From NCBI RefSeq assembly GCF_058153355.1, contig NZ_CM177019.1: DNA of 64,000 bases; one strand, written 5' to 3'. Within the stretch, counting starts at the first letter, position 1. Each line of letters starts with the position of its first letter. Made by a program: the position numbers and the translations under genes. The notes beneath the pieces are model-generated. The model did not search any database. It saw only the letters and a program-made list of their open reading frames with translations, and had not been told where the DNA came from. Shown here one piece after another: positions 1-40,186 of this stretch.

Positions 1-717
1 TTGAACATTCATCACGGTGAAATGGTGGCTCTGCTTGGGCCGTCGGGTTCCGGCAAATCCACCCTTTTACGTCATTTAAGCGGTTTGATTACCGGCGATA
101 AATCTGCCGGTAGCCATATCGAGCTGCTGGGCCGCACAGTCCAGCGCGAAGGCCGCCTGGCCCGCGATATCCGCAAAAGCCGCGCCAACACCGGCTACAT
201 CTTCCAACAATTCAACCTGGTGAATCGCCTGAGCGTACTGGAGAACGTGCTGATTGGCGCGCTCGGCAGCACGCCATTCTGGCGCACCTGTTTTAGCTGG
301 TTCACCCGCGAGCAGAAACAGCGCGCGTTACAGGCGCTGACCCGCGTTGGCATGGTGCACTTTGCCCATCAGCGCGTTTCCACCCTCTCCGGCGGGCAAC
401 AGCAGCGTGTGGCGATTGCCCGCGCGCTGATGCAGCAGGCGAAGGTGATTCTGGCCGATGAACCCATCGCCTCGCTGGACCCGGAATCGGCGCGCATCGT
501 GATGGACACCCTGCGCGACATTAACCAGAACGACGGCATTACCGTGGTCGTCACGCTGCATCAGGTGGATTACGCCCTGCGCTATTGCGAACGCATCGTC
601 GCCCTGCGTCAGGGGCACGTCTTTTACGACGGCAGCAGCCAACAGTTTGATAACGAACGTTTTGACCATCTCTACCGCAGCATTAATCGCATCGAAGAGA
701 ACGCGAAAGCTGCCTGA
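1..717 (+). CDS. phnC: Phosphonate ABC transporter ATP-binding subunit PhnC, 5'-truncated by window edge
   Basis: Frame-1 ORF open from position 1; Walker [13 protein letters not shown] signature LSGGQQQR, Walker B ILADEP; phnD follows 24 nt later. The leading M in the track is an internal TTG codon. Confidence 0.9.
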
Positions 718-741
718 CATCCCCATCATTGAGGAAAACGA

Positions 742-1758: not shown

Positions 1759-1773
1759 TGTGCTCGATCGGTC

Positions 1774-1860
1774 CCCTCTCCCTTGAGGGAGAGGGTTAGG
1801 GTGAGGGGGGAAATACGCACGCTGATGCCCTCACCCCGGCCCTCTCCCACAGGGAGAGGG
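1774..1860. repeat. Three nested GC-rich stem-loops in the phnD-phnE intergenic region
   Basis: CCCTCTCCC-TTGA-GGGAGAGGG (about 1774-1795), GGGTGAGGG…CCCTCACCC (about 1799-1807 with 1828-1836) and CCCTCTCCC-ACA-GGGAGAGGG (about 1840-1860). Confidence 0.75.
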
Positions 1861-1884
1861 AGAAAACATTAAACGGAGCCAAAC

Positions 1885-2664
1885 ATGCAAACCATCACCA
1901 TCGCCCCACCCAAGCGCAGCTGGTTCTCGCTTCTGAGCTGGGCCATTGTTCTCGCCGTGCTGGTCGTCTCGTGGCAGGGCGCGGAAATGGCCCCGCTCAC
2001 GCTGATTAAAGACGGCGGCAACATGGCGACGTTCGCCGCCGACTTCTTCCCGCCCGATTTCAGCCAGTGGCAGGATTACCTCACCGAAATGGCCGTCACG
2101 CTGCAAATCGCCGTCTGGGGCACCGCGCTGGCAGTCGTTCTCTCCATCCCCTTCGGCCTGATGAGCGCCGAAAACCTGGTGCCGTGGTGGGTGTACCAGC
2201 CCGTGCGCCGTCTGATGGACGCCTGCCGCGCCATTAACGAAATGGTCTTCGCCATGCTGTTCGTGGTCGCCGTCGGTCTCGGGCCGTTCGCTGGCGTGCT
2301 GGCGCTGTTTATTCACACCACCGGCGTGCTTTCCAAACTGCTTTCCGAAGCGGTGGAAGCGATTGAACCCGGCCCGGTGGAAGGTATTCGCGCCACTGGT
2401 GCCAACAAGCTCGAAGAGATCCTCTACGGCGTGCTGCCGCAGGTGATGCCGCTGCTGATCTCCTACTCCCTCTATCGCTTCGAATCCAACGTCCGTTCGG
2501 CCACCGTTGTTGGCATGGTCGGCGCTGGCGGGATCGGCGTCACGCTGTGGGAAGCGATTCGCGGTTTCCAGTTCCAGCAAACCTGCGCCCTGATGGTGCT
2601 GATTATCGTCACGGTCAGCCTGCTGGATTTCCTCTCTCAACGGTTGCGTAAGCACTTTATCTGA
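1885..2664 (+). CDS. phnE: Phosphonate ABC transporter permease PhnE (intact reading frame)
   Basis: 259-aa hydrophobic ORF with GGAG RBS, uninterrupted; lies between phnD and phnF. Confidence 0.85.
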
Positions 2665-2684
2665 TAAGCGAGGCATTGATATCT

Positions 2685-3410
2685 ATGCACTTGTCTACAC
2701 ATCCGACCAGCTACCCAACACGCTATCAGGAGATAGCCGCAAAACTTGAGCAGGAGCTTCGTCAACACTACCGCTGCGGCGACTATCTTCCCGCCGAGCA
2801 GCAACTGGCAGCGCGCTTTGAGGTGAATCGCCACACCCTGCGCCGTGCCATCGACCAACTGGTGGAAAAAGGCTGGGTACAGCGCCGTCAGGGCGTCGGC
2901 GTGCTGGTGCTGATGCGCCCGTTCGATTACCCGCTCAACGCTCAGGCGCGTTTTAGCCAGAACCTGCTGGATCAGGGTAGCCATCCCACCAGCGAAAAAC
3001 TGCTGTCCGTGCTGCGCCCGGCCTCCGGTCACGTCGCTGACGCGCTGGGGATAACCGAGGGCGAGAACGTTATCCACCTGCGCACCCTGCGCCGGGTCAA
3101 CGGCGTCGCGCTCTGTTTAATCGACCACTACTTTGCGGACCTCACCCTCTGGCCGACGCTGCAACGCTTCGACAGCGGCTCGCTGCACGATTTTCTGCGT
3201 GAGCAAACGGGGATTGCGCTGCGCCGCAGCCAGACGCGGATCAGCGCCCGCCGCGCCCAGGCCAAAGAGTGCCAGCGTCTTGAAATCCCGAATATGTCGC
3301 CGCTGCTGTGCGTGCGCACCCTTAACCACCGTGACGGTGAAAGCAGCCCGGCGGAGTACTCCGTCAGCCTGACGCGCGCCGACATGATTGAATTCACTAT
3401 GGAGCACTGA
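2685..3410 (+). CDS. phnF: GntR-family transcriptional regulator PhnF
   Basis: Track ORF 2676-3410 trimmed to ATG giving 241 aa; N-terminal HTH region; operon context. Confidence 0.85.
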   Translation: MHLSTHPTSYPTRYQEIAAKLEQELRQHYRCGDYLPAEQQLAARFEVNRHTLRRAIDQLVEKGWVQRRQGVGVLVLMRPFDYPLNAQARFSQNLLDQGSHPTSEKLLSVLRPASGHVADALGITEGENVIHLRTLRRVNGVALCLIDHYFADLTLWPTLQRFDSGSLHDFLREQTGIALRRSQTRISARRAQAKECQRLEIPNMSPLLCVRTLNHRDGESSPAEYSVSLTRADMIEFTMEH

Positions 3411-3863
3411 ATGCACGCAGATACCGCGACCCGCCAGCACTGGATGTCCGTGCTGGCGCACAGCCAACCGGCTGAACTGGCTAACCGCCTTAAAGCGCTA
3501 AACATCACCGCCGACTATGACATTATCCGCGCCGCCGAAACCGGCCTGGTACAGATTCAGGCGCGGATGGGTGGCACCGGCGAACGCTTTTTTGCCGGCG
3601 ACGCCACGCTCACCCGCGCCGCCATACGCCTGACTGACGGCACGCTCGGCTACAGCTGGGTGCTGGGGCGCGACAAACAGCACGCCGAACGCTGCGCGCT
3701 GATTGACGCGCTGATGCAGCAATCTCGCCACTTTCAAAACTTATCAGAAACCCTTATTGCCCCGCTGGACGCTGACCGTATGGCACGCATTGCCGCACGC
3801 CAGGCCGAAGTGAACGCCAGTCGGGTCGACTTCTTTACGATGGTTCGCGGAGACAACGCATGA
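3411..3863 (+). CDS. phnG: C-P lyase core complex subunit PhnG
   Basis: 150-aa ORF; start abuts phnF stop; recognised PhnG sequence. Confidence 0.9.
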
Positions 3864-4444
3864 CCCTGGAAACCGCTTTTATGCTTCCCGTGCAGGATGC
3901 CCAGCACAGTTTTCGTCGCCTGTTAAAGGCCATGAGCGAGCCGGGCGTGATTGTCGCCCTACATCAACTCAAACGCGGCTGGCAGCCGCTGAATATTGCC
4001 TCTACCAGCGTATTGCTGACGCTGGCTGATAACGACACGCCGGTGTGGCTTTCCGCGCCATTAAGTAACGATATCGTCAGCCAGAGCCTGCGTTTTCATA
4101 CCAACGCCCCGCTGGTCAATCAGCCGGAACAGGCGACCTTCGCAGTGACGGATGAGGCGATTGCCAGCGAGCAGCTCAACGCCCTTTCCACCGGCACCGC
4201 CGTTGCGCCGGAAGCCGGTGCGACGTTGATTTTACAGGTCACCAGCCTGAGCGGCGGACGCATGCTGCGCCTCACCGGCGCGGGTATTGCCGAAGAACGG
4301 ATGATCGCCCCGCAACTGCCGGAGTGCATTCTGCACGAACTCACCGAGCGCCCGCACCCGTTCCCGCTCGGCATCGACCTGATCCTGACCTGCGGCGAGC
4401 GCCTGCTGGCTATTCCGCGAACCACTCATGTGGAGGTGTGCTGA
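3860..4444 (+). CDS. phnH: C-P lyase core complex subunit PhnH
   Basis: 194-aa ORF overlapping phnG stop by 4 nt (translational coupling). Confidence 0.9.
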
Positions 4445-5508
4445 TGTACGTTGCCGTGAAAGGGGGCGAGAAGGCGATCGACGCCGCCCACGCCCTGCAA
4501 GAGAGCCGACGCCGGGGCGATACCGATTTGCCTGAACTGAGCGTCGCCCAGATTGAACAGCAGCTTAATCTCGCGGTGGATCGCGTGATGACCGAAGGCG
4601 GCATTGCCGACCGCGAACTGGCCGCACTGGCGCTGAAACAGGCCAGTGGCGATAACGTTGAAGCAATTTTCCTGCTGCGCGCCTACCGCACGACGCTGGC
4701 AAAACTGGCGGTAAGCGAGCCGCTCGACACCACCGGGATGCGTCTCGAACGCCGTATCTCCGCCGTTTATAAAGACATTCCTGGCGGCCAGCTGCTTGGC
4801 CCGACCTACGACTACACCCATCGCCTGCTGGATTTCACCCTGCTGGCGAATGGCGAAGCGCCGACGCTGACCACCGCCGACAGCGAGCAAGCCCCATCGC
4901 CGCACGTTTTCAGCCTGCTGGCGCGTCAGGGGCTGGCGAAGTTTGAAGAGGATAGCGGCGCACAGCCGGATGACATCACCCGTACACCGCCGGTTTACCC
5001 TTGCTCTCGCGCCTCCCGCCTGCAACAGCTCATGCGCGGCGACGAAGGCTACTTGCTGGCGCTGGCCTACTCCACCCAGCGCGGATATGGTCGCAATCAC
5101 CCCTTCGCAGGTGAAATCCGCAGCGGCTATATCGACGTGTCGATTGTGCCAGAAGAGCTGGGATTTTCAGTAAACGTCGGCGAACTGCTGATGACCGAGT
5201 GTGAAATGGTCAACGGTTTTATCGACCCGCCGGATGAGCCGCCGCACTTCACGCGCGGCTACGGGCTGGTGTTCGGCATGAGCGAGCGCAAAGCGATGGC
5301 AATGGCGCTGGTTGACCGTGCGTTGCAGGCTCCGGAGTACGGCGAGCACGCGACAGGCCCGGCGCAGGATGAAGAGTTCGTGCTGGCGCATGCCGACAAC
5401 GTCGAAGCCGCAGGCTTTGTCTCGCACCTCAAACTCCCGCACTACGTCGATTTCCAGGCCGAGCTGGAGCTACTCAAACGTCTGCAACAGGAGCAGAACC
5501 ATGGCTAA
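4444..5508 (+). CDS. phnI: C-P lyase core complex subunit PhnI
   Basis: Track ORF 4324-5508 trimmed to the ATG overlapping the phnH stop ([13 protein letters not shown]…), giving 354 aa. Confidence 0.88.
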   Translation: MYVAVKGGEKAIDAAHALQESRRRGDTDLPELSVAQIEQQLNLAVDRVMTEGGIADRELAALALKQASGDNVEAIFLLRAYRTTLAKLAVSEPLDTTGMRLERRISAVYKDIPGGQLLGPTYDYTHRLLDFTLLANGEAPTLTTADSEQAPSPHVFSLLARQGLAKFEEDSGAQPDDITRTPPVYPCSRASRLQQLMRGDEGYLLALAYSTQRGYGRNHPFAGEIRSGYIDVSIVPEELGFSVNVGELLMTECEMVNGFIDPPDEPPHFTRGYGLVFGMSERKAMAMALVDRALQAPEYGEHATGPAQDEEFVLAHADNVEAAGFVSHLKLPHYVDFQAELELLKRLQQEQNHG

Positions 5509-6346
5509 TCTGAGCGGCTACAACTTTGCCTACCTCGACGAGCAGACCAAACGCATGATCCGCCGCGCCATCTTAAAAGCGGTGGCGATCCCCGGCTATC
5601 AGGTGCCGTTTGGCGGGCGCGAGATGCCGATGCCATACGGCTGGGGAACCGGCGGCATACAGCTTACCGCCAGCGTGATTGGCGAAAGCGACGTGTTGAA
5701 GGTGATTGACCAGGGCGCGGATGACACCACCAACGCCGTATCAATTCGCAACTTTTTCAAGCGCGTGACCGGGGTAAACACCACTGAACGTACGGATGAT
5801 GCGACGCTTATCCAGACGCGCCACCGCATCCCCGAAACGCCGCTGACCGAAGATCAGATCATTATTTTCCAGGTGCCCATCCCCGAACCGCTGCGCTTTA
5901 TCGAGCCGCGCGAAACGGAGACCCGCACTATGCACGCGCTGGAGGAGTACGGCGTGATGCAGGTGAAACTGTATGAAGATATCGCCCGCTTCGGTCATAT
6001 CGCCACCACCTACGCCTATCCGGTGAAGGTGAACGGACGCTACGTAATGGACCCATCGCCGATCCCGAAATTTGATAACCCGAAAATGGACATGATGCCC
6101 GCCCTGCAACTGTTCGGCGCGGGGCGCGAAAAGCGTATTTATGCGGTGCCGCCGTTTACCCGCGTGGAAAGCCTCGATTTCGACGATCATCCGTTCACCG
6201 TTCAGCAGTGGGATGAACCCTGCGCGATTTGCGGATCAACCCACAGCTATCTTGATGAAGTGGTGCTGGATGACGCCGGAAACCGCATGTTTGTCTGCTC
6301 CGATACCGATTATTGCCGCCAACAGAGCGAGGCGAAAAGCCAATGA
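5501..6346 (+). CDS. phnJ: C-P lyase catalytic subunit PhnJ (radical SAM-dependent)
   Basis: Track ORF trimmed to MANLSGYNFAYLDEQ… (281 aa); C-terminal Cys cluster CAICGSTHSYLDE…CSDTDYC; overlaps phnI by 8 nt. Confidence 0.9.
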   Translation: MANLSGYNFAYLDEQTKRMIRRAILKAVAIPGYQVPFGGREMPMPYGWGTGGIQLTASVIGESDVLKVIDQGADDTTNAVSIRNFFKRVTGVNTTERTDDATLIQTRHRIPETPLTEDQIIIFQVPIPEPLRFIEPRETETRTMHALEEYGVMQVKLYEDIARFGHIATTYAYPVKVNGRYVMDPSPIPKFDNPKMDMMPALQLFGAGREKRIYAVPPFTRVESLDFDDHPFTVQQWDEPCAICGSTHSYLDEVVLDDAGNRMFVCSDTDYCRQQSEAKSQ

Positions 6347-7101
6347 ATCAACCGTTACTTTCGGTCAATAACCTGACCCACCTCTACGCGCCGGGCAAAG
6401 GCTTTAGCGATGTCTCTTTTGATTTATGGCCGGGGGAAGTGCTGGGCATCGTCGGGGAATCCGGCTCCGGGAAGACCACGCTGCTGAAATCAATCTCCGC
6501 GCGCCTGACGCCGCAGCAGGGGGAGATTCGCTATGAAAACCGCTCCCTCTATGGCATGAGCGAAGCCGACCGCCGCCGTTTGCTGCGCACCGAATGGGGC
6601 GTGGTGCATCAGCATCCGCTCGACGGCCTGCGCCGTCAGGTGTCAGCAGGCGGCAATATCGGCGAACGGCTGATGGCGACCGGGGCGCGTCATTACGGCG
6701 ACATTCGCGCCACCGCGCAGAAGTGGCTGGAAGAGGTGGAGATTCCCGCCAACCGTATCGACGATCTGCCGACCACTTTTTCCGGCGGCATGCAGCAGCG
6801 TTTGCAGATTGCCCGCAACCTGGTGACGCATCCGAAGCTGGTGTTTATGGACGAGCCAACCGGCGGGCTGGATGTGTCAGTGCAGGCACGCCTGCTCGAC
6901 CTGCTGCGCGGTCTGGTGGTGGAGCTGAACCTGGCAGTGGTGATTGTCACCCATGATCTGGGTGTCGCACGCCTGTTGGCAGACCGTTTGCTGGTGATGA
7001 AACAGGGGCAAGTGGTGGAGAGTGGCTTAACCGACCGCGTGCTCGACGACCCGCATCACCCGTATACCCAGTTGCTGGTGTCATCGGTTTTGCAGAATTG
7101 A
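6343..7101 (+). CDS. phnK: ABC-type ATPase PhnK (C-P lyase accessory)
   Basis: Trimmed to MNQPLLSVNNL… (252 aa); Walker A GESGSGKTT, signature FSGGMQQR, Walker B VFMDEP. Confidence 0.9.
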   Translation: MNQPLLSVNNLTHLYAPGKGFSDVSFDLWPGEVLGIVGESGSGKTTLLKSISARLTPQQGEIRYENRSLYGMSEADRRRLLRTEWGVVHQHPLDGLRRQVSAGGNIGERLMATGARHYGDIRATAQKWLEEVEIPANRIDDLPTTFSGGMQQRLQIARNLVTHPKLVFMDEPTGGLDVSVQARLLDLLRGLVVELNLAVVIVTHDLGVARLLADRLLVMKQGQVVESGLTDRVLDDPHHPYTQLLVSSVLQN

Positions 7102-7104
7102 GCC

Positions 7105-7250
7105 GGTGCCGGATGCGGCGTAAACGCCTTATCCGGCTTTTCAGGCCGCAACGCCTGATGGCGCTTCGCTTATCAGGCCTACAAAACCATCGTAATACGT
7201 TGATATTGATTCATTTGTAGGCCGGATAAGGCGCAGCCGCCATCCGGCAA
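7105..7250. repeat. REP palindromic units between phnK and phnL
   Basis: GCCGGATGCGGCGTAAACGCCTTATCCGGC, GCCTGATGGCGCTTCGCTTATCAGGCCTAC and TAGGCCGGATAAGGCGCAGCCGCCATCCGGC in the 167-bp phnK-phnL gap. Confidence 0.85.
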
Positions 7251-7268
7251 AAACACGAAGAGGCCAAA

Positions 7269-7949
7269 ATGATCCGCGTCGAAAACGTCAGTAAAACCTT
7301 CATCCTGCACCAGCAAAACGGCGTGCGCCTGCCCGTCTTACAACGCGCCTCGCTCACCGTCAACGCGGGCGAATGCGTGGTGCTCCACGGTCACTCCGGC
7401 AGCGGCAAATCAACTCTGCTACGCTCGCTGTACGCCAACTATCTGCCCGACGAAGGGCAAATTCAGATCAAACATGGTGACGAGTGGGTAGACCTGGTCA
7501 CCGCGCCAGCGCGCAAAGTGGTGGAAATCCGCAAAACCACCGTCGGCTGGGTGAGCCAGTTTCTGCGGGTCATCCCGCGTATTTCAGCGCTGGAAGTGGT
7601 AATGCAGCCGCTGCTCGATACCGGCGTTTCGCGTGATGCCTGCGCCGCTAAAGCCGCGCGTCTGCTCACCCGCCTGAACGTGCCGGAACGTCTGTGGCAC
7701 CTGGCGCCATCGACCTTCTCCGGCGGCGAACAGCAGCGCGTCAACATCGCGCGCGGCTTTATCGTCGATTACCCCATTCTGCTGCTCGACGAACCTACTG
7801 CCTCGCTGGACGCCAAAAACAGCGCCGCGGTGGTGGAACTGATCCGCGAAGCTAAAACCCGCGGCGCAGCCATCGTCGGCATCTTCCACGACGAAGCCGT
7901 ACGCAATGACGTCGCCGACCGCCTCCACCCAATGGGAGCCTCTGCATGA
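7269..7949 (+). CDS. phnL: ABC-type ATPase PhnL (C-P lyase accessory)
   Basis: 226-aa ORF; Walker [10 protein letters not shown], signature FSGGEQQR, Walker B LLLDEP; preceded by a REP cluster. Confidence 0.9.
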
Positions 7950-9082
7950 TTATCAATAACGTCAAACTGGTGCTGGAAAACGAAGTGGTACACGGTTCGC
8001 TGGAGGTGCAGGACGGCGAAATTCGCGCCTTTGCCGAAAGCCAGAGCCGCCTGCCAGAGGCGATGGACGGCGAAGGCGGCTGGCTGCTGCCGGGGCTGAT
8101 TGAGCTGCATACCGACAACCTCGATAAATTCTTCACTCCGCGCCCAAAAGTGGACTGGCCTGCCCACTCGGCGATGAGCAGCCACGATGCGCTGATGGTG
8201 GCGAGCGGCATCACCACCGTGCTGGACGCCGTGGCGATTGGCGACGTGCGCGACGGCGGCGATCGGCTGGAGAATCTGGAAAAGATGATCAACGCCATCG
8301 AAGAGACGCAGAAACGCGGCGTCAACCGCGCCGAGCACCGCCTGCACCTGCGCTGCGAACTGCCGCATCACACTACGCTGCCGCTGTTTGAAAAACTGGT
8401 GCAGCGCGAGCCGGTCACGCTGGTGTCGCTAATGGACCACTCACCGGGCCAGCGCCAGTTCGCCAATCGCGAGAAATATCGCGAATATTATCAGGGCAAA
8501 TACTCGCTCACCGATGCGCAGATGCAGCAGTATGAAGGGGAACAACTGGCGCTTGCCGCACGCTGGTCGCAGCCGAATCGCGAAACCATCGCCGCAATGT
8601 GCCGCGCGCGACAAATTGCCCTCGCCAGCCACGATGACGCCACGCACGCGCACGTTGCCGAATCCCACCAGCTTGGCAGCGTAATCGCCGAATTTCCCAC
8701 CACGTTCGAAGCGGCGGAAGCTTCGCGCAAGCATGGCATGAATGTATTGATGGGCGCGCCGAATATTGTGCGCGGCGGTTCGCACTCCGGCAACGTGGCG
8801 GCCAGTGAACTGGCACAGCTTGGTCTGCTGGATATCCTCTCTTCCGACTACTACCCCGCCAGCCTGCTCGATGCGGCATTTCGCGTCGCCGATGACGAGA
8901 GCAACCGCTTTACGCTGCCGCAGGCGGTGAAGCTGGTGACTAAAAATCCGGCCCAGGCGCTTAATCTTCAGGATCGCGGGGTGATTGGCGAGGGCAAACG
9001 CGCCGACCTGGTGCTGGCGCATCGCAAGGGCAACCACATTCATATCGATCACGTCTGGCGTCAGGGTAAAAGGGTGTTCTGA
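7946..9082 (+). CDS. phnM: Amidohydrolase-family phosphonate pathway protein PhnM
   Basis: 378-aa ORF overlapping phnL stop by 4 nt; recognised PhnM sequence. Confidence 0.9.
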
Positions 9083-9639
9083 TGACGGGAAAACTGATTT
9101 GGTTAATGGGGGCCTCTGGCTCCGGAAAAGACAGTCTGTTGACGGAACTCCGCCAGCGGGAACAAACTCAGCTACTGGTAGCGCATCGCTACATCACGCG
9201 CGCCGCCAGCGCCGGAAGTGAAAACCATATCGCCCTGAGCGAGCAGGAGTTTTTTACCCGCGCGGGGCAGAACCTTCTGGCCTTAAGCTGGCACGCCAAC
9301 GGCCTGTATTATGGCATCGGCGTCGAGATTGACCTCTGGCTGCACGCTGGATTTGACGTGGTGGTCAACGGCTCACGCGCCCATCTACCGCAGGCGCGGG
9401 CGCGCTATCAATCGGCGCTGCTGCCCATCTGTTTACAGGTTTCGCCAGAGATCCTGCGCCAGCGCCTGGAAAACCGTGGCCGTGAAAACGCCAGTGAAAT
9501 TAACGCCCGCCTGGCGCGCGCCGCCCGCTATACTCCTCAGGATTGTCTTACGCTCAATAATGACGGCAGCCTGCGCCAGTCGGTCGACAAGCTGCTGACG
9601 CTGATTCATCAGAAGGAGAAACACCATGCCTGCTTGTGA
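9082..9639 (+). CDS. phnN: Ribose 1,5-bisphosphate phosphokinase PhnN
   Basis: 185-aa ORF with P-loop GASGSGKDS; start overlaps phnM stop. Confidence 0.9.
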
Positions 9640-10060
9640 GCTTCGCCCGGCCACGCAGTACGACACCGACGCAGTTTACGCGCTGATTTGTGAGCTAAAA
9701 CAGGCGGAGTTTGACCACCACGCGTTTCGCGTGGGGTTTAACGCCAATCTGCGCGACCCGAACATGCGCTACCATCTGGCGCTGCTGGATGGCGAAGTTG
9801 TCGGCATGATCGGCCTGCATTTGCAGTTTCATCTGCATCATGTCAACTGGATCGGCGAAATTCAGGAACTGGTGGTGATGCCGCAGGCGCGCGGTCTGAA
9901 CGTCGGCAGTAAATTACTGGCATGGGCCGAAGAAGAAGCCCGCCAGGCCGGGGCCGAAATGACCGAGCTTTCCACCAACGTCAAGCGCCACGACGCGCAC
10001 CGTTTCTATCTGCGCGAAGGCTACGAGCAGAGCCACTTCCGCTTCACCAAGGCGCTGTAA
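9626..10060 (+). CDS. phnO: GNAT-family aminoalkylphosphonate N-acetyltransferase PhnO
   Basis: 144-aa ORF overlapping phnN by 14 nt; recognised PhnO sequence. Confidence 0.88.
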
Positions 10061-10061
10061 C

Positions 10062-10820
10062 ATGAGCCTGACCCTCACACTTACTGGCACTGGCGGCGCA
10101 CAGGGCGTTCCCGCATGGGGCTGTGAGTGTGCGGCCTGCGCCAGAGCGCAGCGCTCACCGCAGTATCGCCGCCAGCCATGCAGCGGCGTCGTGAAGTTTA
10201 ACGAGGCGATCACCCTGATCGACGCCGGGCTGCACGATCTCGCCGATCGCTGGTCGCCCGGATCGTTCCAGCAGTTTTTGCTGACGCACTACCATATGGA
10301 TCACGTGCAGGGGCTGTTTCCGCTGCGCTGGGGCGTGGGCGATTCTATCCCGGTCTACGGCCCGCCGGATGAACAGGGCTGCGACGATCTGTTTAGACAT
10401 CCGGGCCTGCTTGATTTCAGCCACACGGTGGAGCCATTTGTGATGTTTGATTTGCAGGGATTACAGGTCACGCCGCTGCCGCTCAACCATTCGAAACTCA
10501 CTTTCGGCTATCTACTGGAAACGGCACATAGCCGGGTGGCGTGGCTGTCTGACACCGCAGGCCTGCCGGAAAAAACGGTGAAATTTTTACGCAATAATCA
10601 GCCGCAGGTGATGGTGATTGATTGCAGCCACCCACCGCGCGCGAATTCGCCACGCAATCACTGTGATTTAAACACCGTGCTGGCGCTGAATGAAGTTATC
10701 CGCTCGCCGCGCGTGGTTCTGACACATATCAGCCATCAGCTTGATGTGTGGCTGATGGAGAACGTACTGCCGTCAGGGTTTGAGGCGGGGTTTGATGGGA
10801 TGGAGATTGGGGTGGAGTAA
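10062..10820 (+). CDS. phnP: Metallo-beta-lactamase-fold phosphodiesterase PhnP
   Basis: 252-aa ORF with HxHxDH metal motif ([10 protein letters not shown]); last gene of the operon. Confidence 0.9.
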
Positions 10821-10854
10821 TGGGTGAGGGGCGATGCCTGCTCTAAACTCAACA

Positions 10855-11184
10855 TCACCGCCCATACTCATCTTCCATTCTCCGCTCTTCATCTTCTAGC
10901 TGCCGACGCTCCTGATCCAGCTGGCGCTGGCGATCGTCCAGCTGCCTGCGGCGATCTTCAAACTGGCGGCGGCGATCGTCATATTGTCTGCGCCGATCGT
11001 CGTTCACTTCACGCTGCCAGCCGTCGTCGCGCGAATCTTCATAGTCTCGCCCACGGTCAGGGTTATAAGCATCGTTAATCGCCTGCTGAATATTGCCAAT
11101 GGTGTCGTCGATAATATCGGCCTGGGCCGGAACGGTGGACAGCGTGAGCAGGGTGAATAAAAGAAATAGCGGAAAACGTTTCAT
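10855..11184 (-). CDS. yjdP: Small secreted low-complexity protein YjdP
   Basis: 109-aa ORF with signal peptide (…TVPAQA/D) and Asp/Arg/Gln-rich repeats (DDRRRQYDDRRRQFEDRRRQLDDRQRQL); position next to phnP as in K-12. Confidence 0.75.
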   Translation of the reverse strand: MKRFPLFLLFTLLTLSTVPAQADIIDDTIGNIQQAINDAYNPDRGRDYEDSRDDGWQREVNDDRRRQYDDRRRQFEDRRRQLDDRQRQLDQERRQLEDEERRMEDEYGR

Positions 11185-19053: not shown

Positions 19054-21201
19054 ATGAAAAAAGTCGTCACGGTTTGCCCCTATTGCGCATCAGGTTGCAA
19101 AATCAACCTGGTCGTCGATAACGGCAAAATCGTCCGGGCGGAGGCAGCGCAGGGCAAAACCAACCAGGGTACCCTGTGTCTGAAGGGGTATTATGGCTGG
19201 GATTTCATTAACGATACCCAGATCCTGACCCCGCGCCTGAAAACCCCCATGATTCGTCGCCAGCGTGGCGGCAAACTCGAACCTGTTTCCTGGGATGAGG
19301 CACTGAATTACGTTGCCGAGCGCCTGAGCGCCATCAAAGAGAAGTACGGTCCGGATGCCATCCAGACGACCGGCTCCTCGCGTGGTACGGGTAACGAAAC
19401 CAACTATGTAATGCAAAAATTTGCGCGCGCCGTTATTGGTACCAATAACGTTGACTGCTGCGCTCGCGTCTGACACGGCCCATCGGTTGCAGGTCTGCAC
19501 CAATCGGTCGGTAATGGCGCAATGAGCAATGCTATTAACGAAATTGATAATACCGATTTAGTGTTCGTTTTCGGGTACAACCCGGCGGATTCCCACCCTA
19601 TCGTGGCGAATCACGTAATTAACGCTAAACGTAACGGGGCGAAAATTATCGTCTGCGATCCGCGCAAAATTGAAACCGCGCGCATTGCTGACATGCACAT
19701 TGCACTGAAAAACGGCTCGAATATCGCGCTGTTGAATGCGATGGGCCATGTCATTATTGAAGAAAATCTGTACGACAAAGCGTTCGTCGCTTCCCGTACA
19801 GAAGGCTTTGAAGAGTATCGTAAAATCGTTGAAGGCTACACGCCGGAGTCGGTTGAAGATATCACCGGCGTCAGCGCCAGTGAGATTCGTCAGGCGGCGC
19901 GGATGTATGCCCAGGCGAAAAGCGCCGCCATCCTGTGGGGCATGGGTGTAACCCAGTTCTACCAGGGCGTGGAAACCGTGCGTTCTCTGACCAGCCTCGC
20001 GATGCTGACTGGTAACCTCGGTAAGCCGCATGCGGGTGTAAACCCGGTTCGTGGTCAAAACAACGTGCAGGGGGCCTGCGATATGGGCGCACTGCCAGAT
20101 ACTTACCCTGGCTACCAGTATGTGAAAGATCCGGCTAACCGCGAGAAATTCGCCAAAGCCTGGGGTGTAGAGAGTCTGCCTGCTCATACCGGTTATCGCA
20201 TCAGCGAGCTGCCGCACCGCGCAGCGCATGGTGAAGTGCGTGCCGCGTACATTATGGGCGAAGATCCGCTACAAACTGACGCGGAGCTGTCGGCAGTACG
20301 TAAAGCCTTTGAAGATCTGGAACTGGTCATCGTTCAGGACATCTTTATGACCAAAACCGCGTCGGCGGCGGATGTCATTTTACCGTCAACGTCGTGGGGC
20401 GAGCATGAAGGCGTGTTTACTGCGGCTGACCGTGGCTTCCAGCGTTTCTTCAAAGCAGTTGAACCGAAATGGGATCTGAAAACGGACTGGCAGATTATCA
20501 GTGAAATCGCCACCCGTATGGGTTATCCGATGCACTACAACAACACCCAGGAGATCTGGGATGAGTTGCGTCATCTGTGCCCGGATTTCTACGGTGCGAC
20601 TTACGAGAAAATGGGCGAACTGGGCTTCATTCAGTGGCCTTGTCGCGATACTTCAGATGCCGATCAGGGGACTTCTTATCTGTTTAAAGAGAAGTTTGAT
20701 ACTCCGAACGGTCTGGCGCAGTTCTTCACCTGCGACTGGGTAGCGCCAATCGACAAACTCACCGACGAGTATCCGATGGTACTGTCAACGGTGCGTGAAG
20801 TCGGTCACTACTCTTGCCGTTCGATGACCGGTAACTGTGCGGCACTGGCGGCGCTGGCTGATGAACCTGGCTACGCACAAATCAATACCGAAGACGCCAA
20901 ACGTCTGGGTATTGAAGATGAGGCATTGGTTTGGGTGCACTCGCGTAAAGGCAAAATTATCACCCGTGCGCAGGTCAGCGATCGTCCGAACAAAGGGGCG
21001 ATTTACATGACCTACCAGTGGTGGATTGGTGCCTGTAACGAGCTGGTTACCGAAAACTTAAGCCCGATTACGAAAACGCCGGAATACAAATACTGCGCCG
21101 TGCGCGTCGAGCCGATCGCCGATCAGCGCGCCGCCGAGCAGTACGTGATTGACGAGTACAACAAGTTGAAAACTCGCCTGCGCGAAGCGGCATTGGCGTA
21201 A
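19054..21201 (+). CDS. fdhF: Formate dehydrogenase H (selenocysteine-containing, molybdopterin) FdhF; in-frame UGA at 19471-19473 decoded as Sec
   Basis: Track ORFs 19054-19473 and 19522-21201 are in the same frame, separated only by a TGA; merged length is 715 aa; N-terminal Cys cluster CPYCASGC; the UGA sits in CCARV-U-HGPS and is followed by a hairpin. Confidence 0.92.
19474..19515 (+). promoter_or_regulatory. SECIS stem-loop directing selenocysteine insertion at the fdhF UGA
   Basis: Sequence immediately 3' of the TGA (CACGGCCCATCGGTTGCAGGTCTGCACCAATCGGTCGG…) can fold into the stem-loop expected for a bacterial SECIS. Confidence 0.7.
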
Positions 21202-21986: not shown

Positions 21987-22250
21987 TAGGCCTGATAAGA
22001 CGCGGTAAGCGTCGCATCAGATATTAATGTCGGATGCGGCGTAAACGCCTTATCCGACCTACAAAATCACCCTAAATCAAGCTATTGCGCAGTCTGGCGT
22101 AGGCCTGATAAGACGCGGCAAGCGTCGCATCAGGCATTGATGTCGGATGCGGCGTAAACGCCTTATCCGACCTACAAAATCACGCTAAATCAGGCTATTG
22201 CGCAGTCTGGCGTAGGCCTGATAAGACGCGGCAAGCGTCGCATCAGGCAT
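21987..22250. repeat. BIME/REP array: five REP palindromic units in alternating orientation, about 113-bp period
   Basis: Repeated units TAGGCCTGATAAGACGCGGCAAGCGTCGCATCAGGC and GTCGGATGCGGCGTAAACGCCTTATCCGACCTAC, with near-identical 113-bp repeats starting near 21987, 22100 and 22213. Confidence 0.85.
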
Positions 22251-32678: not shown

Positions 32679-32795
32679 TGCCGGATGCGATCCGGGCAAC
32701 AAGTCGGAAACGATTTGTAGGCCTGATAAGACGCGACAGCGTCGCATCAGGCATTGATTGCCGGATGCGGCGTATAACGCCTTATCCGGCCTACA
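32679..32795. repeat. REP palindromic units between acs and yjcH
   Basis: TAGGCCTGATAAGACGCGACAGCGTCGCATCAGGC and GCCGGATGCGGCGTATAACGCCTTATCCGGCCTAC. Confidence 0.8.
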
Positions 32796-32882: not shown

Positions 32883-34843
<1,961 letters not shown>

Positions 34844-35020
34844 TCTCTACCCTTCCCCGGTCGCTTGATCGGGGAATACTCTTCCTCTCCAATATGCATC
34901 ACCTTTTCTAATAATATTAAACAAATAAACTCAATAAAAAATGAGCGATTTTTGACAGTCGTAGAAAAAGATAATGCAGAGAATATGCCTTTTCTTTCTT
35001 GTTAATTATAAGGATATTTT

Positions 35021-36313
35021 ATGCGCTATAATGGTTTAAATAATATGTTTTTCCCTCTTTGCCTGATTAACGATAACCACCCTGTCACAAGTCCATCACA
35101 TACAAAGAAAACAAAATCAGATAATTATAGCAAACATCATAAAGACACGTTAATTGACAATAAAGCCCTCTCTCTTTTCAAAATGGATGATCATGAAAAA
35201 GTGATAGGCTTGATTCAGAAAATGAAAAGAACTTATGATACTTTACCATCAGGAAAAATCACTAAAGAAACGGACAGGAAAATTCATAAATATTTTATAG
35301 ATATAGCTTTATACGCAAGTAATAAATATGACGATAGAATTACGAGAAGAGTTTACCTTAATAAAGATAAGGAAGTATCAATTAAGGTAGTGTATTTTAT
35401 AAATAATGTCACTGTCCATAATAATACTATCGAAATCCCACAGACAGTAAATGGTGGTTACGATTTTTCATACCTTAGCCTGAAAGGTATCAGGATTAAA
35501 GATGAAGATTTATCCAATTCGGATTTTGCAGGTTGCAGACTACAAAATGCTATTTTCCAGGGCTGTAATATGTATCAAACGAATTTTAATTTTGCCATAA
35601 TGGAAAAAATAATTTTTGATAATTGTATTCTCGATGACTCAAATTTCGCTCAGATAAAAATGACTGACGGAACTCTAAATGCATGCTCCGCTATGCATGT
35701 TGAATTCTTCAATGCAACAATGATTAGAGCTAAAATTAAAAATACCTTCCTTGACTATTCAAATTTTTATATGGCGTACATGGCTGAGGTGAATCTTTAT
35801 AAAGTAATAGCGCCATATGTTAATTTATTTAGAGCCGACCTTAGTTTCTCTAAACTCGATTTAATTAACTTTGAACATGCTAATCTTTCTCGCGTCAACC
35901 TGAACAAAGCAACCCTCCAGAATATAAACTTAATTAATAGCAAACTCTTTTTTACGCGGCTGACAAATACGTTCCTCGAAATGGTTATATGTACCGATTC
36001 TAATATGGCTAATGCTAATTTTAATAATGCCAATTTAAGCAATTGCCATTTCAACTGTTCTATTTTAACAAAAGCCTGGATGTTTAATACCCGTTTCTAT
36101 CGGGTTAATTTCGATGAGGCTATCGTCCAGGGAATGGGCATATCCATTCTCCGTGGGGAGGATAATATTCCCATTAATAGTGATATCCTGATAACACTAC
36201 AGCAACTCTTTGAAGAGGATTGTGCCACTCATACTGGCATGTCACAAACTGAGCATAATATTCAGGAAGTGTCTATGAATACCACTGAAGATACTATGCA
36301 ATACGCAGATTGA
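35021..36313 (+). CDS. yjcF: Pentapeptide-repeat protein YjcF
   Basis: 430-aa ORF in strongly AT-rich DNA; C-terminal two-thirds made of tandem pentapeptide-like repeats (…NFNFA…, …ANLSRVNLNKATLQNINLINSKL…, ANANFNNANLSNCHFN…). Confidence 0.8.
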   Translation: MRYNGLNNMFFPLCLINDNHPVTSPSHTKKTKSDNYSKHHKDTLIDNKALSLFKMDDHEKVIGLIQKMKRTYDTLPSGKITKETDRKIHKYFIDIALYASNKYDDRITRRVYLNKDKEVSIKVVYFINNVTVHNNTIEIPQTVNGGYDFSYLSLKGIRIKDEDLSNSDFAGCRLQNAIFQGCNMYQTNFNFAIMEKIIFDNCILDDSNFAQIKMTDGTLNACSAMHVEFFNATMIRAKIKNTFLDYSNFYMAYMAEVNLYKVIAPYVNLFRADLSFSKLDLINFEHANLSRVNLNKATLQNINLINSKLFFTRLTNTFLEMVICTDSNMANANFNNANLSNCHFNCSILTKAWMFNTRFYRVNFDEAIVQGMGISILRGEDNIPINSDILITLQQLFEEDCATHTGMSQTEHNIQEVSMNTTEDTMQYAD

Positions 36314-36402
36314 GATTAAGCCGAAGAATAGCCAATGAATTGACTTTAAAAGAGAGATACTCACGGACTTCTGACTTATTTATTTTAGAATCATGAATGT
36401 TA

Positions 36403-36460
36403 GCCCGAGGTAATCTGAAAAAGGTGCAAAAGATTGCACCTTTTTCAGATTACCTCGGGC
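36403..36460. terminator. 58-nt perfect palindrome between convergent yjcF and yjcE; likely bidirectional terminator
   Basis: GCCCGAGGTAATCTGAAAAAGGTGCAA-AAGA-TTGCACCTTTTTCAGATTACCTCGGGC: 27-bp arms with no mismatch, 20 nt from the yjcE stop. Confidence 0.6.
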
Positions 36461-36480
36461 CTGGTTACGTCGCTTTCGGC

Positions 36481-38130
36481 TTACTGATTTTCCTCAATCA
36501 ACAACGCTTCAAGCAAATCGAGATCGTGCAATAATTTTTGCAGCGTTTCGTTACTGATCTCCCGCGTGGCGCGCAGGTGGTAAAGTTCAGCTCGTTCAGA
36601 ACGCAATGCTGCCAGACGGAAGCGACGCTCCAGATTCTCTTCCTGCACGGAACTTTCAACGTCGTTACGTCCATCGGCGCGACGACGCAGGTTACCAATG
36701 ACGCGAGAACTGACCTCCGTGAGCAGCTGGTTATCGATATTCTCTTCGGTATCCGCCGCCAGACGCTCCTCCATTTTCTGGATTGCCACAATCGCCACTT
36801 CTGCCGTTGCCGCTCGCGCAATACGCTCCTCTTTCAACTGCTGCGAATGGTCTGCGACTTCAATGTGTTGCAGCAGAATGGGCAACATCACCACGCCGAC
36901 AAACAGCGAGAAGAGAATGACGCCAGCCGCCAGGAACACCAACTCATAGCGCGCCGGGAAGACGTTGCCATCCGGCAAGAGCAGCGGGATAGAGAGCACA
37001 CCGGCTAGTGTGATCGCCCCACGCACCCCGGCAAAAGACGCAATCAGGATTTCTCGTGTGGTCCACGAACCAAACTCCATCGGCTTCTTCTTCAGAAAAC
37101 GGTTGCTGAACTTTTTCATCGTCCACAGCCAGCCAAAACGGACCAGCATCAGCGCCGCATAAATCAGAATGATATCGGTAAACAGCATCCAGATTTCGAC
37201 GTTAGGGTCGATTTCTGCCGCCATCAGCGACGTCTCCAGAATACCCGGCAACTGCAGACCTAACAGCAGGAATACCATGCCGTTGAAGACAAATTCCAGC
37301 ATCGCCCAGGTGCTGTTTGCGCGCAGGCGCATCGCCAGCGGCGCACGGCGCATTACACCGGAGCGGGTGATGGTCATCCCAGCGGCAACCGCAGCAAGAA
37401 TACCGGAAACGCCAATATGTTCGGCAATCAGATAAGAAGCGAATGGCAGCAGGAACAGCAGTACAATCTGCGTCGCGGGTTCATCACCGCCCCAGCGGCT
37501 GAGGAATCGCAGCGAACGACCATACAGCCAGCTCACCACAAAACCGGCGAGAATACCGCCAATGGCCACTTTCATAAATTCCACCGTTGCACCGCCGACG
37601 GTGAAGATCATCGTCCCCATCGCCACTGCCACAGCAAACTTTAATGACACCAGGCCGGAGGCGTCATTCATCAACGCTTCGCCCTGCAAAATACCCATGA
37701 TTTTTTTCGGGATGCGCCCTTCGCCAACAATACCGGAAAGCGCCACAGCATCGGTCGGAGAAAGCACCGCCGCCAGCGCAAAGGCGGGAATCAGCGGAAT
37801 GCCCGGCACCACCCAGTAAATAAGGAAGCCAATGCCAACCACGGTGACCACCACCAGCGCCAGCGCGAGGCCGAAAATCTCCCGACCATGTTCGAGAAAT
37901 TCACGGGTCGGCGTTTTCCAGCCATCTGCGAACAGCAACGGCGGGATAAACAAGACTAAAAAGAGTTCAGGATCAAACTCCACATGCAAACCAAACGTCG
38001 GCCACGCCAGTAGCGCACCGATGGCGATTTGCATAAGCGGAAGCGGGATCTGAAAGGGCATGACACGAGTGACCACCCCGGACAGCGAGACCACGAGGGT
38101 CATTATCAGTATGGTGAAGAAGATTTCCAT
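36481..38130 (-). CDS. yjcE: CPA1-family Na+(K+)/H+ exchanger YjcE
   Basis: 549-aa ORF with hydrophobic N-terminal transporter domain and charged coiled-coil-like C-terminal tail. Confidence 0.88.
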   Translation of the reverse strand: MEIFFTILIMTLVVSLSGVVTRVMPFQIPLPLMQIAIGALLAWPTFGLHVEFDPELFLVLFIPPLLFADGWKTPTREFLEHGREIFGLALALVVVTVVGIGFLIYWVVPGIPLIPAFALAAVLSPTDAVALSGIVGEGRIPKKIMGILQGEALMNDASGLVSLKFAVAVAMGTMIFTVGGATVEFMKVAIGGILAGFVVSWLYGRSLRFLSRWGGDEPATQIVLLFLLPFASYLIAEHIGVSGILAAVAAGMTITRSGVMRRAPLAMRLRANSTWAMLEFVFNGMVFLLLGLQLPGILETSLMAAEIDPNVEIWMLFTDIILIYAALMLVRFGWLWTMKKFSNRFLKKKPMEFGSWTTREILIASFAGVRGAITLAGVLSIPLLLPDGNVFPARYELVFLAAGVILFSLFVGVVMLPILLQHIEVADHSQQLKEERIARAATAEVAIVAIQKMEERLAADTEENIDNQLLTEVSSRVIGNLRRRADGRNDVESSVQEENLERRFRLAALRSERAELYHLRATREISNETLQKLLHDLDLLEALLIEENQ

Positions 38131-40044: not shown

Positions 40045-40186
40045 ATCAACACCAACCGGAACCTCCACCACGTGCTCGAATGAGGTGTGTTGACGTCGGG
40101 GGAAACCCTCCTGTGTACCAGCGGGATAGAGAGAAAGACAAAGACCGGAAAACAAACTAAAGCGCCCTTGTGGCGCTTTAGTTTTG
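40045..40186 (+). ncRNA. ryjA: Small RNA RyjA (SraL), converging on the soxR 3' end
   Basis: Known K-12 sRNA location between ghxP and soxR on the strand opposite soxR; a TACAAT -10-like element near 40033-40038; ends at a hairpin TAAAGCGCC-CTTGT-GGCGCTTTA plus GTTTTGTT that overlaps the soxR stop. 5' end is approximate. Confidence 0.45.

Follow-up and report, generated by a model that had tools for sequence, protein, structure and literature searches.

yjcF (espX5) of Escherichia coli: a foreign, AT-rich single-gene islet encoding a predicted pentapeptide-repeat protein between actP and yjcE

The yjcF gene and its composition

The window analyzed here is a stretch of 64,000 nucleotides in which actP and yjcE are separated by a single open reading frame of 430 amino acids (35021 to 36313, + strand; GC 0.334), with a Shine-Dalgarno sequence, AAGGA (35010 to 35014), lying 6 nt 5' of its start. 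By sequence, this frame is an already known gene, yjcF (b4066), which is EspX5 (ECs5048) of O157. PGAP calls the gene at the actP-yjcE locus either espX5 or yjcF, and the allele in the window bears a generic name only, without “EspX5.” The encoded protein shares with K-12 YjcF and O157 EspX5 the same site, the length of 430 amino acids, and the domain layout, at 89 to 90% protein identity over 100% coverage; its differences from K-12 YjcF are concentrated in the C-terminal tail. At the DNA level, yjcF is ~94% identical to its K-12 counterpart, in step with the flanking genes. Only 18 of 5,426 complete E. coli genomes carry the allele at 99.3 to 99.8% DNA identity, while 4,089 carry one at 90 to 95%. 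A tblastn search found no YjcF paralogues in the 64-kb window; EspX4/yjbI sits just past its right end.

The gene stands out by composition. Its GC content by codon position is 0.38/0.29/0.33, against 0.55 to 0.57 overall and 0.65 at third positions for acs, actP, and yjcE, and the low GC corresponds to a z score of -3.9 relative to 47 equal-length, nonoverlapping segments of the stretch. Besides the interval 34712 to 36561, the window has only one other long run with GC below 0.40. Asparagine makes up 11.4% of YjcF residues (3.2% in the neighbors) and lysine 6.7% (3.3%), and codon choice is similarly shifted: AAT accounts for 86% of Asn codons (31% in the neighbors), ATA for 32% of Ile codons (2%), and AGA for 47% of Arg codons (1%). 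The first-pass annotation, made from the letters of the window, had described yjcF as an AT-rich island with Asn/Ile/Lys-biased codon usage; the contrast of 0.33 with ~0.55 GC in the neighbors bears out the former, and the Asn and Lys shares together with the AAT and ATA excess bear out the latter. It had placed the island at 34844 to 36313, an interval that is indeed AT rich (the intergenic part at 34844 to 35020 has GC 0.33) but that ends too early, as AT-richness reaches 36480 (GC 0.40 over 36314 to 36480).

A three-state site between actP and yjcE

In ~60 of 80 Enterobacterales species, the genes lysR-lrgA-lrgB lie between yjcE and actP, in an interval whose GC is mostly 0.51 to 0.62. Within E. 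coli, the site was found in three states that together cover 5,413 of the 5,426 complete genomes: yjcF (4,110), the lysR-lrgA-lrgB cassette (1,038, with phylogroup B2-type genomes having this state), and empty (265). An AT-rich yjcF at a position held elsewhere by lysR-lrgA-lrgB genes with host-like GC marks the gene as foreign DNA in place of the ancestral cassette. We conclude that yjcF replaced this three-gene cassette in the E. coli lineage.

Both edges of the islet could be placed. The left boundary is the terminator hairpin of actP (34858 to 34877, + strand; CCCCGGTCGC-TTGA-TCGGGG; -17.1 kcal/mol, z = -4.2), which is common to genomes that have the lrgAB-lysR cassette instead; past actP, ST131 and the window are identical to position 34877, at which point the yjcF and cassette states diverge. 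The AT-rich upstream region of yjcF follows (34878 to 35020, + strand; GC 0.33). On the other side, yjcF and yjcE are convergent across an intergenic region (36314 to 36480) that is 87% identical to that of K-12 and contains a perfect 27-bp inverted repeat with a 4-nt loop (36403 to 36460; -50.5 kcal/mol, z = -11), probably a bidirectional terminator for the two genes. From the core of this hairpin through the yjcE stop, the sequence is homologous to the intergenic region of the empty site in Escherichia albertii and in empty-site E. coli, and by this homology the right arm of the repeat is ancestral. At its left junction the islet is thus akin to cassette-bearing genomes, and at its right junction to genomes with an empty site. 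Judged from these sequences, the order of events may have been cassette to empty to yjcF, or yjcF may have replaced the cassette directly.

The islet so defined spans 1.6 kb (~34878 to 36480) and holds no other credible gene. Classical island marks (integrase, tRNA, IS element, or direct repeats at the boundaries) were not found at the islet, and Rfam, whose library includes tRNA models, had no match over 34700 to 36600. A simple sigma-70 scan of the upstream region returned no good promoter, with promoter-like sites outnumbered by those in shuffled sequence; a simple terminator scan returned no canonical terminator, leaving the inverted repeat at 36403 to 36460 unflagged. The gene has also been lost repeatedly, by an IS1-associated deletion, by a short-repeat deletion, and through truncated alleles. 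With its three states, the yjcE-actP site cleanly marks the history of Escherichia lineages.

Distribution of yjcF

The 4,110 carriers, 76% of complete E. coli genomes, include K-12 derivatives, BL21, and DH5alpha, and at least 80% of the gene is covered in 4,094 of the 4,110 matches (a measure of DNA coverage, not of reading frame). All full-length homologues of the protein came from E. coli, Shigella, or an Escherichia sp. strain, with N-terminally truncated forms of 359 to 370 amino acids in Shigella flexneri. An HMMER search with the N-terminal 156 residues against 1.84 billion protein representatives returned only YjcF fragments. A scan of species genomes with the single protein gave no match, and the yjcE-anchored scan that later took its place found yjcF at the locus in 0 of 80 Enterobacterales species. 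Clear orthologues of host-like composition across the family would have spoken against the first-pass annotation; no orthologue, host-like in composition or otherwise, was found beyond E. coli, Shigella, and closely related Escherichia strains.

Neither plasmids nor phages were found to carry yjcF. The full-length “plasmid” matches are records of 0.37 to 4.9 Mb, which are taken to be mislabeled chromosomal DNA; the other 1,265 plasmid records, mainly from Klebsiella, Enterobacter, and Escherichia, have <60% identity to yjcF and are assumed to be largely Qnr genes. Phage matches to YjcF were generic repeat proteins only.

H-NS context, divergence, and selection

In K-12, the yjcF locus is bound by H-NS (10.1101/559138), and the counterpart of the upstream region is an H-NS-bound “promoter island” (PMC3661553). 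With AT-richness computed here and H-NS occupancy taken from the K-12 literature, yjcF fits H-NS-silenced xenogeneic DNA. The K-12 promoter island status and the EspX5 label were both absent from the first-pass annotation.

Synonymous divergence of yjcF (dS 0.14) matches that of the flanking genes (0.16 to 0.25), which shows that the gene has been inherited vertically since its arrival. Its dN/dS is 0.31 to 0.38, some 25 to 60 times higher than that of the neighbors (0.005 to 0.013). Such values, together with an H-NS-bound promoter island showing little productive transcription, repeated loss of the gene, and its absence from 24% of complete E. coli genomes, would suit a functionless relic, that is, foreign DNA tolerated while silent and slowly decaying. 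Two parts of the protein do evolve in that manner: the tail (residues 373 to 430; pN/pS 0.44 to 1.5) is indistinguishable from neutral, as are residues 1 to 54, for which very few substitutions are available to judge. Against decay, neutrality was rejected for the whole gene (P = 1e-3 to 1e-6) and separately for residues 55 to 145 and for the repeat helix. For residues 55 to 145, pN/pS was 0.16 to 0.24 in those four allele pairs whose substitutions were numerous enough to judge; for the helix it was 0.11 to 0.40, with the K-12/O157 comparison at 0.11. The 430-codon frame is moreover intact in all four full-length alleles translated (K-12-like, EC1, O157, and window lineage), despite dS of ~0.14 and a stop-prone GC content of 33%. 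The relic explanation is, accordingly, one that we find quite improbable: yjcF is under purifying selection, relaxed relative to its neighbors, and a gene so maintained does something. In the tail, 27.6% of residues differ from K-12, compared with 5.5% in the N-terminal region.

Protein architecture and predicted fold

Four regions were distinguished in YjcF, all encoded on the + strand. Residues 1 to 54 (35021 to 35182) form a polar leader predicted to be disordered, with pLDDT of 24 to 42. Residues 55 to 145 (35183 to 35455) are a conserved orphan module predicted to consist of two helices followed by strands that lead into the beta-helix; AlphaFold2 gave pLDDT of ~55 to 62 for the helices (55 to 97) and <50 for residues 100 to 143. 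Residues 146 to 372 (35456 to 36136) are predicted to form a pentapeptide-repeat, right-handed quadrilateral beta-helix of ~11 coils, and residues 373 to 430 (36137 to 36310) a tail that is variable and acidic (net charge -10), with a weak helical prediction and pLDDT <50. The low-confidence regions of the model are residues 1 to 49, 100 to 143, and 375 to 430.

Pfam cutoffs and the predicted fold agree in making YjcF a pentapeptide-repeat protein, with tandem repeats of the A(D/N)LXX type. Over residues ~148 to 370, PF00805 scored 75 bits (cutoff 20.2), PF13599 72 (38), and PF13576 43.5 (27), and 51 pentapeptides run in one register from residue 122 (nucleotide 35384), with L, F, M, I, or V at the center of 45. 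In the AlphaFold2 model, pLDDT is 84 to 98 over residues ~160 to 350, with short strands regularly spaced at five residues. Tandem pentapeptide repeats after a leader of roughly 130 amino acids had been read from the letters at first pass, and this description stands, the nonrepeat leader measuring ~120 to 145 amino acids; the structure prediction proposed there as a check likewise yielded a right-handed beta-helix, with pLDDT >90. That annotation was silent on the 58-residue acidic, nonrepeat C-terminal tail (373 to 430).

HetL of the cyanobacterium Nostoc, which functions in protein-protein binding, is both the best curated model for YjcF (72 bits) and the top Foldseek match (E = 2.6e-11). 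Its score is far under the cutoff of 260, however, and HetL, whose 237 residues are all helix, comes from an unrelated organism; the match therefore reflects repeat regularity only. Foldseek assigned a probability of 1.0 alike to HetL, QnrB1, AlbG, MfpA, EfsQnr, and NleL; it was dropped as a functional discriminator, as all pentapeptide structures match, with large root mean square deviations from register slippage. A defense-system reading was also rejected: PADLOC gave no match, and the weak NCBIfam match to HalA is at the level of the repeat only.

Comparison with topoisomerase-directed repeat proteins

The first-pass annotation had raised Qnr and MfpA, pentapeptide-repeat proteins that can mimic DNA, as a frame for yjcF. 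In this reading, YjcF would be a DNA mimic of the Qnr/MfpA/AlbG type, whose binding to gyrase or topoisomerase IV would modulate or protect the enzyme. The right-handed quadrilateral beta-helix is indeed held in common with the topoisomerase-directed proteins Qnr, MfpA, AlbG, and McbG, and QnrB1, AlbG, MfpA, and EfsQnr fall in the same fold class as YjcF (the Foldseek matches above). There are weak sequence matches to Qnr and MfpA in NCBIfam and the PDB, and the helical C-terminal segment, predicted at low confidence, might dimerize as in those proteins.

In size, added domains, and neighborhood, YjcF departs from them. It scores 30.4 bits against the Qnr model NF033086 (cutoff 240), at most 25 against the Qnr subfamily models (cutoffs 425 to 500), and 21 against the MfpA model NF000349 (cutoff 360). 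HetL and synthetic repeat proteins match it better than any topoisomerase-directed member, which argues that the similarity to Qnr and MfpA is generic to the repeat. At 430 amino acids, YjcF is twice the size of the nearly all-helix Qnr (~215 amino acids), with an extra leader of 145 residues and a tail of 58. By a crude residue count (19 K+R versus 20 D+E), the helix carries a net charge of -1, which is not markedly acidic or obviously DNA-like. The C-terminal segment that might dimerize is less conserved than any other part of YjcF. The flanks of yjcF are actP and yjcE, with no mfpB-like or microcin/albicidin gene nearby. Nothing specific favors the Qnr/MfpA framing, and we consider it very improbable that YjcF acts in this way.

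Comparison with type III effectors

On the strength of its resemblance to SopA and PipB, EspX5 received its name as a type III effector candidate, and specialist annotation calls it a “T3SS effector.” YjcF/EspX5 could be a type III substrate, with the disordered N terminus as secretion signal and the beta-helix binding a host target once injected by the LEE or ETT2 system; it would then amount to an effector of the SopA/NleL type minus the ligase domain. The name and the annotation favor this reading, and the layout of YjcF is that of the N-terminal half of NleL. The starts of the two helices align (BLASTP, 24% identity, E = 3e-5), and in NleL an unstructured stretch (residues 1 to 169) precedes a pentapeptide helix at 170 to 370 (PMC3013003). 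Residues 1 to 49 of YjcF are predicted to be disordered, and S, T, P, or N make up 12 of the first 30 residues in a protein that is Asn rich throughout. The repeats have subthreshold NCBIfam matches to PipB2 and PipB (E ~1e-9), the GC content of 0.33 is comparable to that of espX1, espX4, and nleL (0.32 to 0.355), the gene is H-NS bound like many virulence genes, and it evolves faster than its core neighbors.

NleL (EspX7) and SopA, HECT-like E3 ligase effectors found in EHEC and Salmonella, have, like YjcF, a long nonrepeat N terminus followed by a pentapeptide beta-helix of ~200 residues and are encoded by AT-rich genes, but their N-terminal regions show no similarity to that of YjcF, and their C-terminal HECT-like domain, bilobed and with a catalytic cysteine, is absent from YjcF, in which only 58 residues follow the helix. 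The corresponding models score 16.9 bits (PRK15377; cutoff 500) and 12.9 (PRK09718; cutoff 326), NleL ranks 46th among the Foldseek matches of the YjcF model, and NleL is phage borne, whereas yjcF lies in the chromosome backbone. PipB and PipB2, Salmonella SPI-2 effectors, also combine pentapeptide repeats with a nonrepeat leader, yet their models score 38 bits with YjcF (cutoffs 274 to 354), and the repeat segments alone align. Members of EspX are 20 to 24% identical to YjcF within the repeats only; EspX as a true family was therefore rejected, given that EspX1, EspX4, EspX5, and NleL are mutually only 20 to 27% identical, again in the repeats only. For the YjcF leader, no homologue turned up among effectors or other proteins, EspX1, EspX4, and NleL included. 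These comparisons show that the “T3SS effector” label derives from repeat-level resemblance only.

Occurrence of yjcF is not tied to injectisome-bearing genomes, its carriers including K-12 derivatives, BL21, and DH5alpha, which are not known to have the LEE or a working injectisome, and the purifying selection visible between K-12 and O157 (the helix value above) counts against the type III reading, as do the N-terminally truncated forms in S. flexneri. A single match to a MxiE-box-like motif has 3 mismatches, lies downstream of yjcF, and is at chance level. EspX5 is not in the effector table of Ogura 2007, in which EspX2, EspX7, and the backbone-encoded EspY1 are listed (PMC2323221), and no secretion test of EspX5 was found in the literature examined. 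We regard the type III reading as rather unlikely, and the label as no better proven than the DNA-mimic idea.

Proposed role and implications

For yjcF, a DNA-mimic role and an effector role are both putative. As an overall account, to which we lend about even confidence, the window carries a divergent allele of a foreign single-gene islet that has been kept vertically and encodes a protein-binding scaffold. The rigid beta-helix and the conserved 55 to 145 module would together constitute the scaffold, a generic assignment made from the predicted fold alone, and the gene would normally be silenced by H-NS, whose binding is known from K-12, and expressed only under particular conditions. Two observations are weak signs of activity in the bacterial cell: a single high-throughput copurification of YjcF with RF2 and YbeB, and the appearance of yjcF in lists from overexpression screens.

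As to how the scaffold would act, selection has been maintained across lineages sharing no working injectisome (those of K-12, O157, and the window), which favors a mode in which YjcF binds a partner within the bacterium without need of a type III system; we see this as the most likely mode, if only tentatively. Next in rank is delivery through a type III system, itself doubtful, and action as a Qnr/MfpA-type DNA mimic is highly unlikely. A bolder extension, which we judge to be a long way from probable, is that selection in most E. coli, commensal strains among them, keeps a beta-helix protein that is lineage specific, gated by H-NS, and directed at a real cellular target. The target would be either bacterial (gyrase, or factors of translation termination and ribosome silencing such as RF2 and RsfS) or in the host, reached via ETT2, a system that is widespread but usually degraded; in this extension the gene displaced an lrgAB-type cassette that B2 genomes retain.

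For annotation, the consequences are more immediate. Virulence-gene pipelines routinely report yjcF, present in about three-quarters of E. coli genomes, as “T3SS effector espX5,” and the listed papers that mention EspX5 are mostly genome surveys. Given a label derived at the level of the repeat, presence in K-12, BL21, and DH5alpha, and an orphan N-terminal module, counting EspX5 as a virulence factor is unsupported. The gene does lend itself to study as an example of one that is conserved, silenced, and species specific.

An AT-rich gene of known identity

The region keeps the gene order acs-yjcH-actP-yjcF-yjcE-ghxP, as in E. coli, and the yjcF open reading frame (35021-36313, + strand, 430 amino acids) is preceded, at a spacing of 6 nt, by an AAGGA ribosome-binding site. 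The first-pass annotation had described yjcF and its flanks as an AT-rich island with biased codon usage, and the measurements bear this out: GC content was 0.334 for yjcF versus 0.55 to 0.57 for acs, actP, and yjcE (third-position GC, 0.33 versus 0.65 in the neighbors), the intergenic regions on either side were also AT rich (0.33 and 0.40), and yjcF fell at z = -3.9 relative to 47 non-overlapping windows as long as the gene. Asparagine made up 11.4% of YjcF residues versus 3.2% in the neighbors, and AAT, ATA, AGA, and TTA codons were strongly overused. Besides 34712-36561, just one other long run in the window lies below 40% GC. The observation was correct, and the gene is an already known one, named by PGAP either “yjcF: pentapeptide repeat-containing protein” or “espX5: T3SS effector pentapeptide repeat protein EspX5”. 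In O157 Sakai, the locus tag for EspX5 is ECs5048 (PMC5931665).

By megablast, yjcF was present in 4110 of 5426 complete E. coli genomes, single copy and chromosomal in every case. The window allele was at least 99% identical in only 18 of these and approximately 93 to 95% identical in the remainder. The gene itself is not unusually divergent, since the whole window is approximately 95 to 98% identical per kb to O157 (loci L010 and L011) over 50 kb and its actP, yjcE, ghxP, and acs are 94 to 96% identical to those of K-12. The window lineage is nearer to E. coli than to E. whittamii, E. albertii, or either of two further Escherichia species representatives. The strain that the window comes from represents a divergent lineage within E. 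coli, and only a handful of complete genomes (e.g., 2020CK-00188 and EC42405) are at least 99% identical to it at the locus.

Three states of the yjcE-actP site

In a scan anchored on the conserved neighbor YjcE, with one genome per species, yjcF was found at none of 80 Enterobacterales loci, a distribution in keeping with the first reading of an island. Genes for a LysR regulator, LrgA, and LrgB (protein identities confirmed by Pfam) instead lay between yjcE and actP in approximately 60 of the 80, including those of Citrobacter, Enterobacter, Klebsiella, Raoultella, Kluyvera, Kosakonia, Cedecea, Erwinia, Mixta, and Escherichia whittamii; the interval holding this cassette spans 6439-8519 in comparison locus L007, and the cassette recurs in L013 and about 60 other loci. 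Interval GC is mostly 0.51 to 0.62 where it is present, and the lysR-lrgA-lrgB cassette is therefore the ancestral occupant of this site throughout Enterobacterales. In E. albertii and two further Escherichia representatives, the interval was short and “empty.” Of the 5426 complete E. coli genomes, 5413 could be assigned a state: 4110 carried yjcF, 1038 the cassette (counted at ≥99% identity; CFT073 and ST131 among them), and 265 were empty (~81 bp).

The left edge of the island lies directly beyond the actP terminator hairpin (34858-34877), a hairpin common to cassette-state genomes. On the right, the island closes with a hairpin that has a perfect 27-bp stem (36403-36460; -50.5 kcal/mol, z = -11); the right arm of this hairpin and the sequence beyond are homologous to the terminator at the empty site in E. 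albertii. The island has neither an integrase nor a tRNA, and IS elements and boundary repeats are likewise absent; yjcF was not found on any true plasmid or phage. We conclude that yjcF is a foreign single-gene islet that replaced the ancestral cassette. It has also been lost secondarily, in two independent events: in PSJ-23 (L005, 2901-3212) the coding sequence was cleanly deleted between short ATGCAGA-like repeats and a 310-bp remnant is left, and in LF3-1 (L002, 5088-6107) there was an IS1-associated deletion, an IS1A element now standing where the gene was. The K-12 yjcF/actP region has been listed as a “promoter island” tied to H-NS and predicted foreign DNA (PMC3661553), and yjcF, which is H-NS bound in K-12, has served in ChIP as a known H-NS-bound locus (10.1101/559138).

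Divergence and selection

Between the window lineage and K-12, dS was 0.14 for yjcF and 0.16 to 0.25 for its neighbors; given this similarity, yjcF has co-diverged with them by vertical inheritance since their common ancestor. The dN/dS of yjcF was 0.31 to 0.38 versus 0.005 to 0.013 for the neighbors. Neutral evolution could be rejected both for the gene as a whole (p between 1e-3 and 1e-6) and, separately, for residues 55-145 and the helix, where pN/pS between K-12 and O157 was 0.11. Residues 1-54 and the tail were indistinguishable from neutral evolution, the tail being the most variable part (27.6% of residues differ from K-12). Thus, selection maintains yjcF, albeit with much less constraint than on core genes, and it is quite improbable that the gene has no function.

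Protein architecture and named families

YjcF consists of a leader (1-54), an orphan module (55-145), a beta-helix (~146-372), and a tail (373-430). The earlier description of a tandem pentapeptide-repeat protein stands for the repeats (Pfam, residues ~148-370; 51 pentapeptides in one register starting at residue 122) but had left out the C-terminal tail of 58 nonrepeat, acidic residues. AlphaFold2 (36 sequences) returned the beta-helix for which the first-pass annotation had proposed a structure prediction, with confidence (pLDDT 84 to 98 over ~160-350); residues 1-49 were predicted to be disordered, two helices of moderate confidence were placed at 55-97, and regions 100-143 and 375-430 were of low confidence. 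Foldseek matched all solved pentapeptide proteins (among them HetL, designed solenoids, QnrB1, AlbG, MfpA, EfsQnr, and NleL) without discriminating between them. Residues 1-156, searched with HMMER against 1.84 billion cluster representatives, recovered only YjcF's own fragments, and a word-indexed search of 5.8 billion proteins passed from E. coli alleles (≥81% identity) directly to 25%-identical cyanobacterial repeat proteins. All the cluster members read came from E. coli, Shigella, or a single Escherichia sp. strain; in Shigella flexneri, forms truncated at the N terminus occur.

YjcF reached the cutoff of none of the curated models (bits/cutoff: HetL, 72/260; PipB2, 38/354; PipB, 38/274; Qnr, 30/240; MfpA, 21/360; HECT effector, 17/500; SopA family, 13/326). 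The Qnr/MfpA-like DNA mimicry raised at first pass fared poorly: besides those scores, YjcF is of doubled size, with a neutral helix charge, a poorly conserved C terminus, and no partner genes, and we regard a DNA mimic as highly improbable. EspX1, EspX4, and NleL/EspX7 of O157 shared only 20 to 24% identity with YjcF, confined to the repeats, with no similarity in the first 170 residues; EspX was therefore rejected as a homologous family and is a name given to pentapeptide proteins of AT-rich genes (GC, 0.32 to 0.355). NleL, unstructured over 1-169 and then helical over 170-370 (PMC3013003), parallels YjcF in the layout of its N-terminal half, but its HECT-like domain is absent from YjcF. EspX4/yjbI (O157 locus L011, 9393-10973), between ubiC and malM just past the right end of the window, is a “SopA family protein” per PGAP; its alignment with NleL extends across 473 residues (E = 8e-16), which places it much nearer to NleL than YjcF is. 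What the analysis adds to a known gene is its evolutionary context and the finding that the two functional labels, Qnr-like and T3SS effector, both reflect similarity at the repeat level alone.

Candidate role of YjcF

Together with the conserved module at 55-145, the helix may form a protein-binding scaffold, which would be expressed only once silencing is lifted. The lineages between which selection on yjcF is seen, as in the low helix pN/pS between K-12 and O157, are not known to share a working injectisome. For that reason we tentatively favor a target inside the bacterium; delivery by type III secretion, as the EspX5 name implies, is rather unlikely. A type III effector table lists EspX2, EspX7, and the backbone gene EspY1 but not EspX5 (PMC2323221), and no EspX5 secretion experiment was found in the literature examined. 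High-throughput studies report co-purification of YjcF with RF2 and YbeB (PMC2672614) and recovery of yjcF in a persister-waking selection (10.1101/486985), with further mentions in an oxidant-resistance list and genomic SELEX tables.

Other features of the window

The second long AT-rich stretch (55513-57510, GC 0.33) holds a gene for a DUF2713 protein (56035-57039, - strand; Pfam, 184 bits). Because its DNA is only 70.5% identical to the O157 counterpart versus 96 to 97% for the flanks, this gene is hypervariable or has had its allele replaced; the K-12 zur/yjbL region is likewise listed as an H-NS “promoter island” (PMC3661553). A selenocysteine insertion element (19466-19520, + strand; Rfam SECIS_2, 88 bits) directly precedes an open reading frame (19522-21201) consistent with fdhF and an in-frame UGA codon. 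The sRNA sraL (40045-40185, + strand; Rfam RF01408, 153 bits) adjoins soxR. Rfam naRNA4 matches (REP-type nucleoid-associated RNA elements) occur at 21989-22059, 22102-22172, and 32720-32791, all on the - strand, one of the three within the acs-yjcH intergenic region. Positions 1-11000 have a GC content of 0.57 to 0.63 versus a window mean of 0.526.
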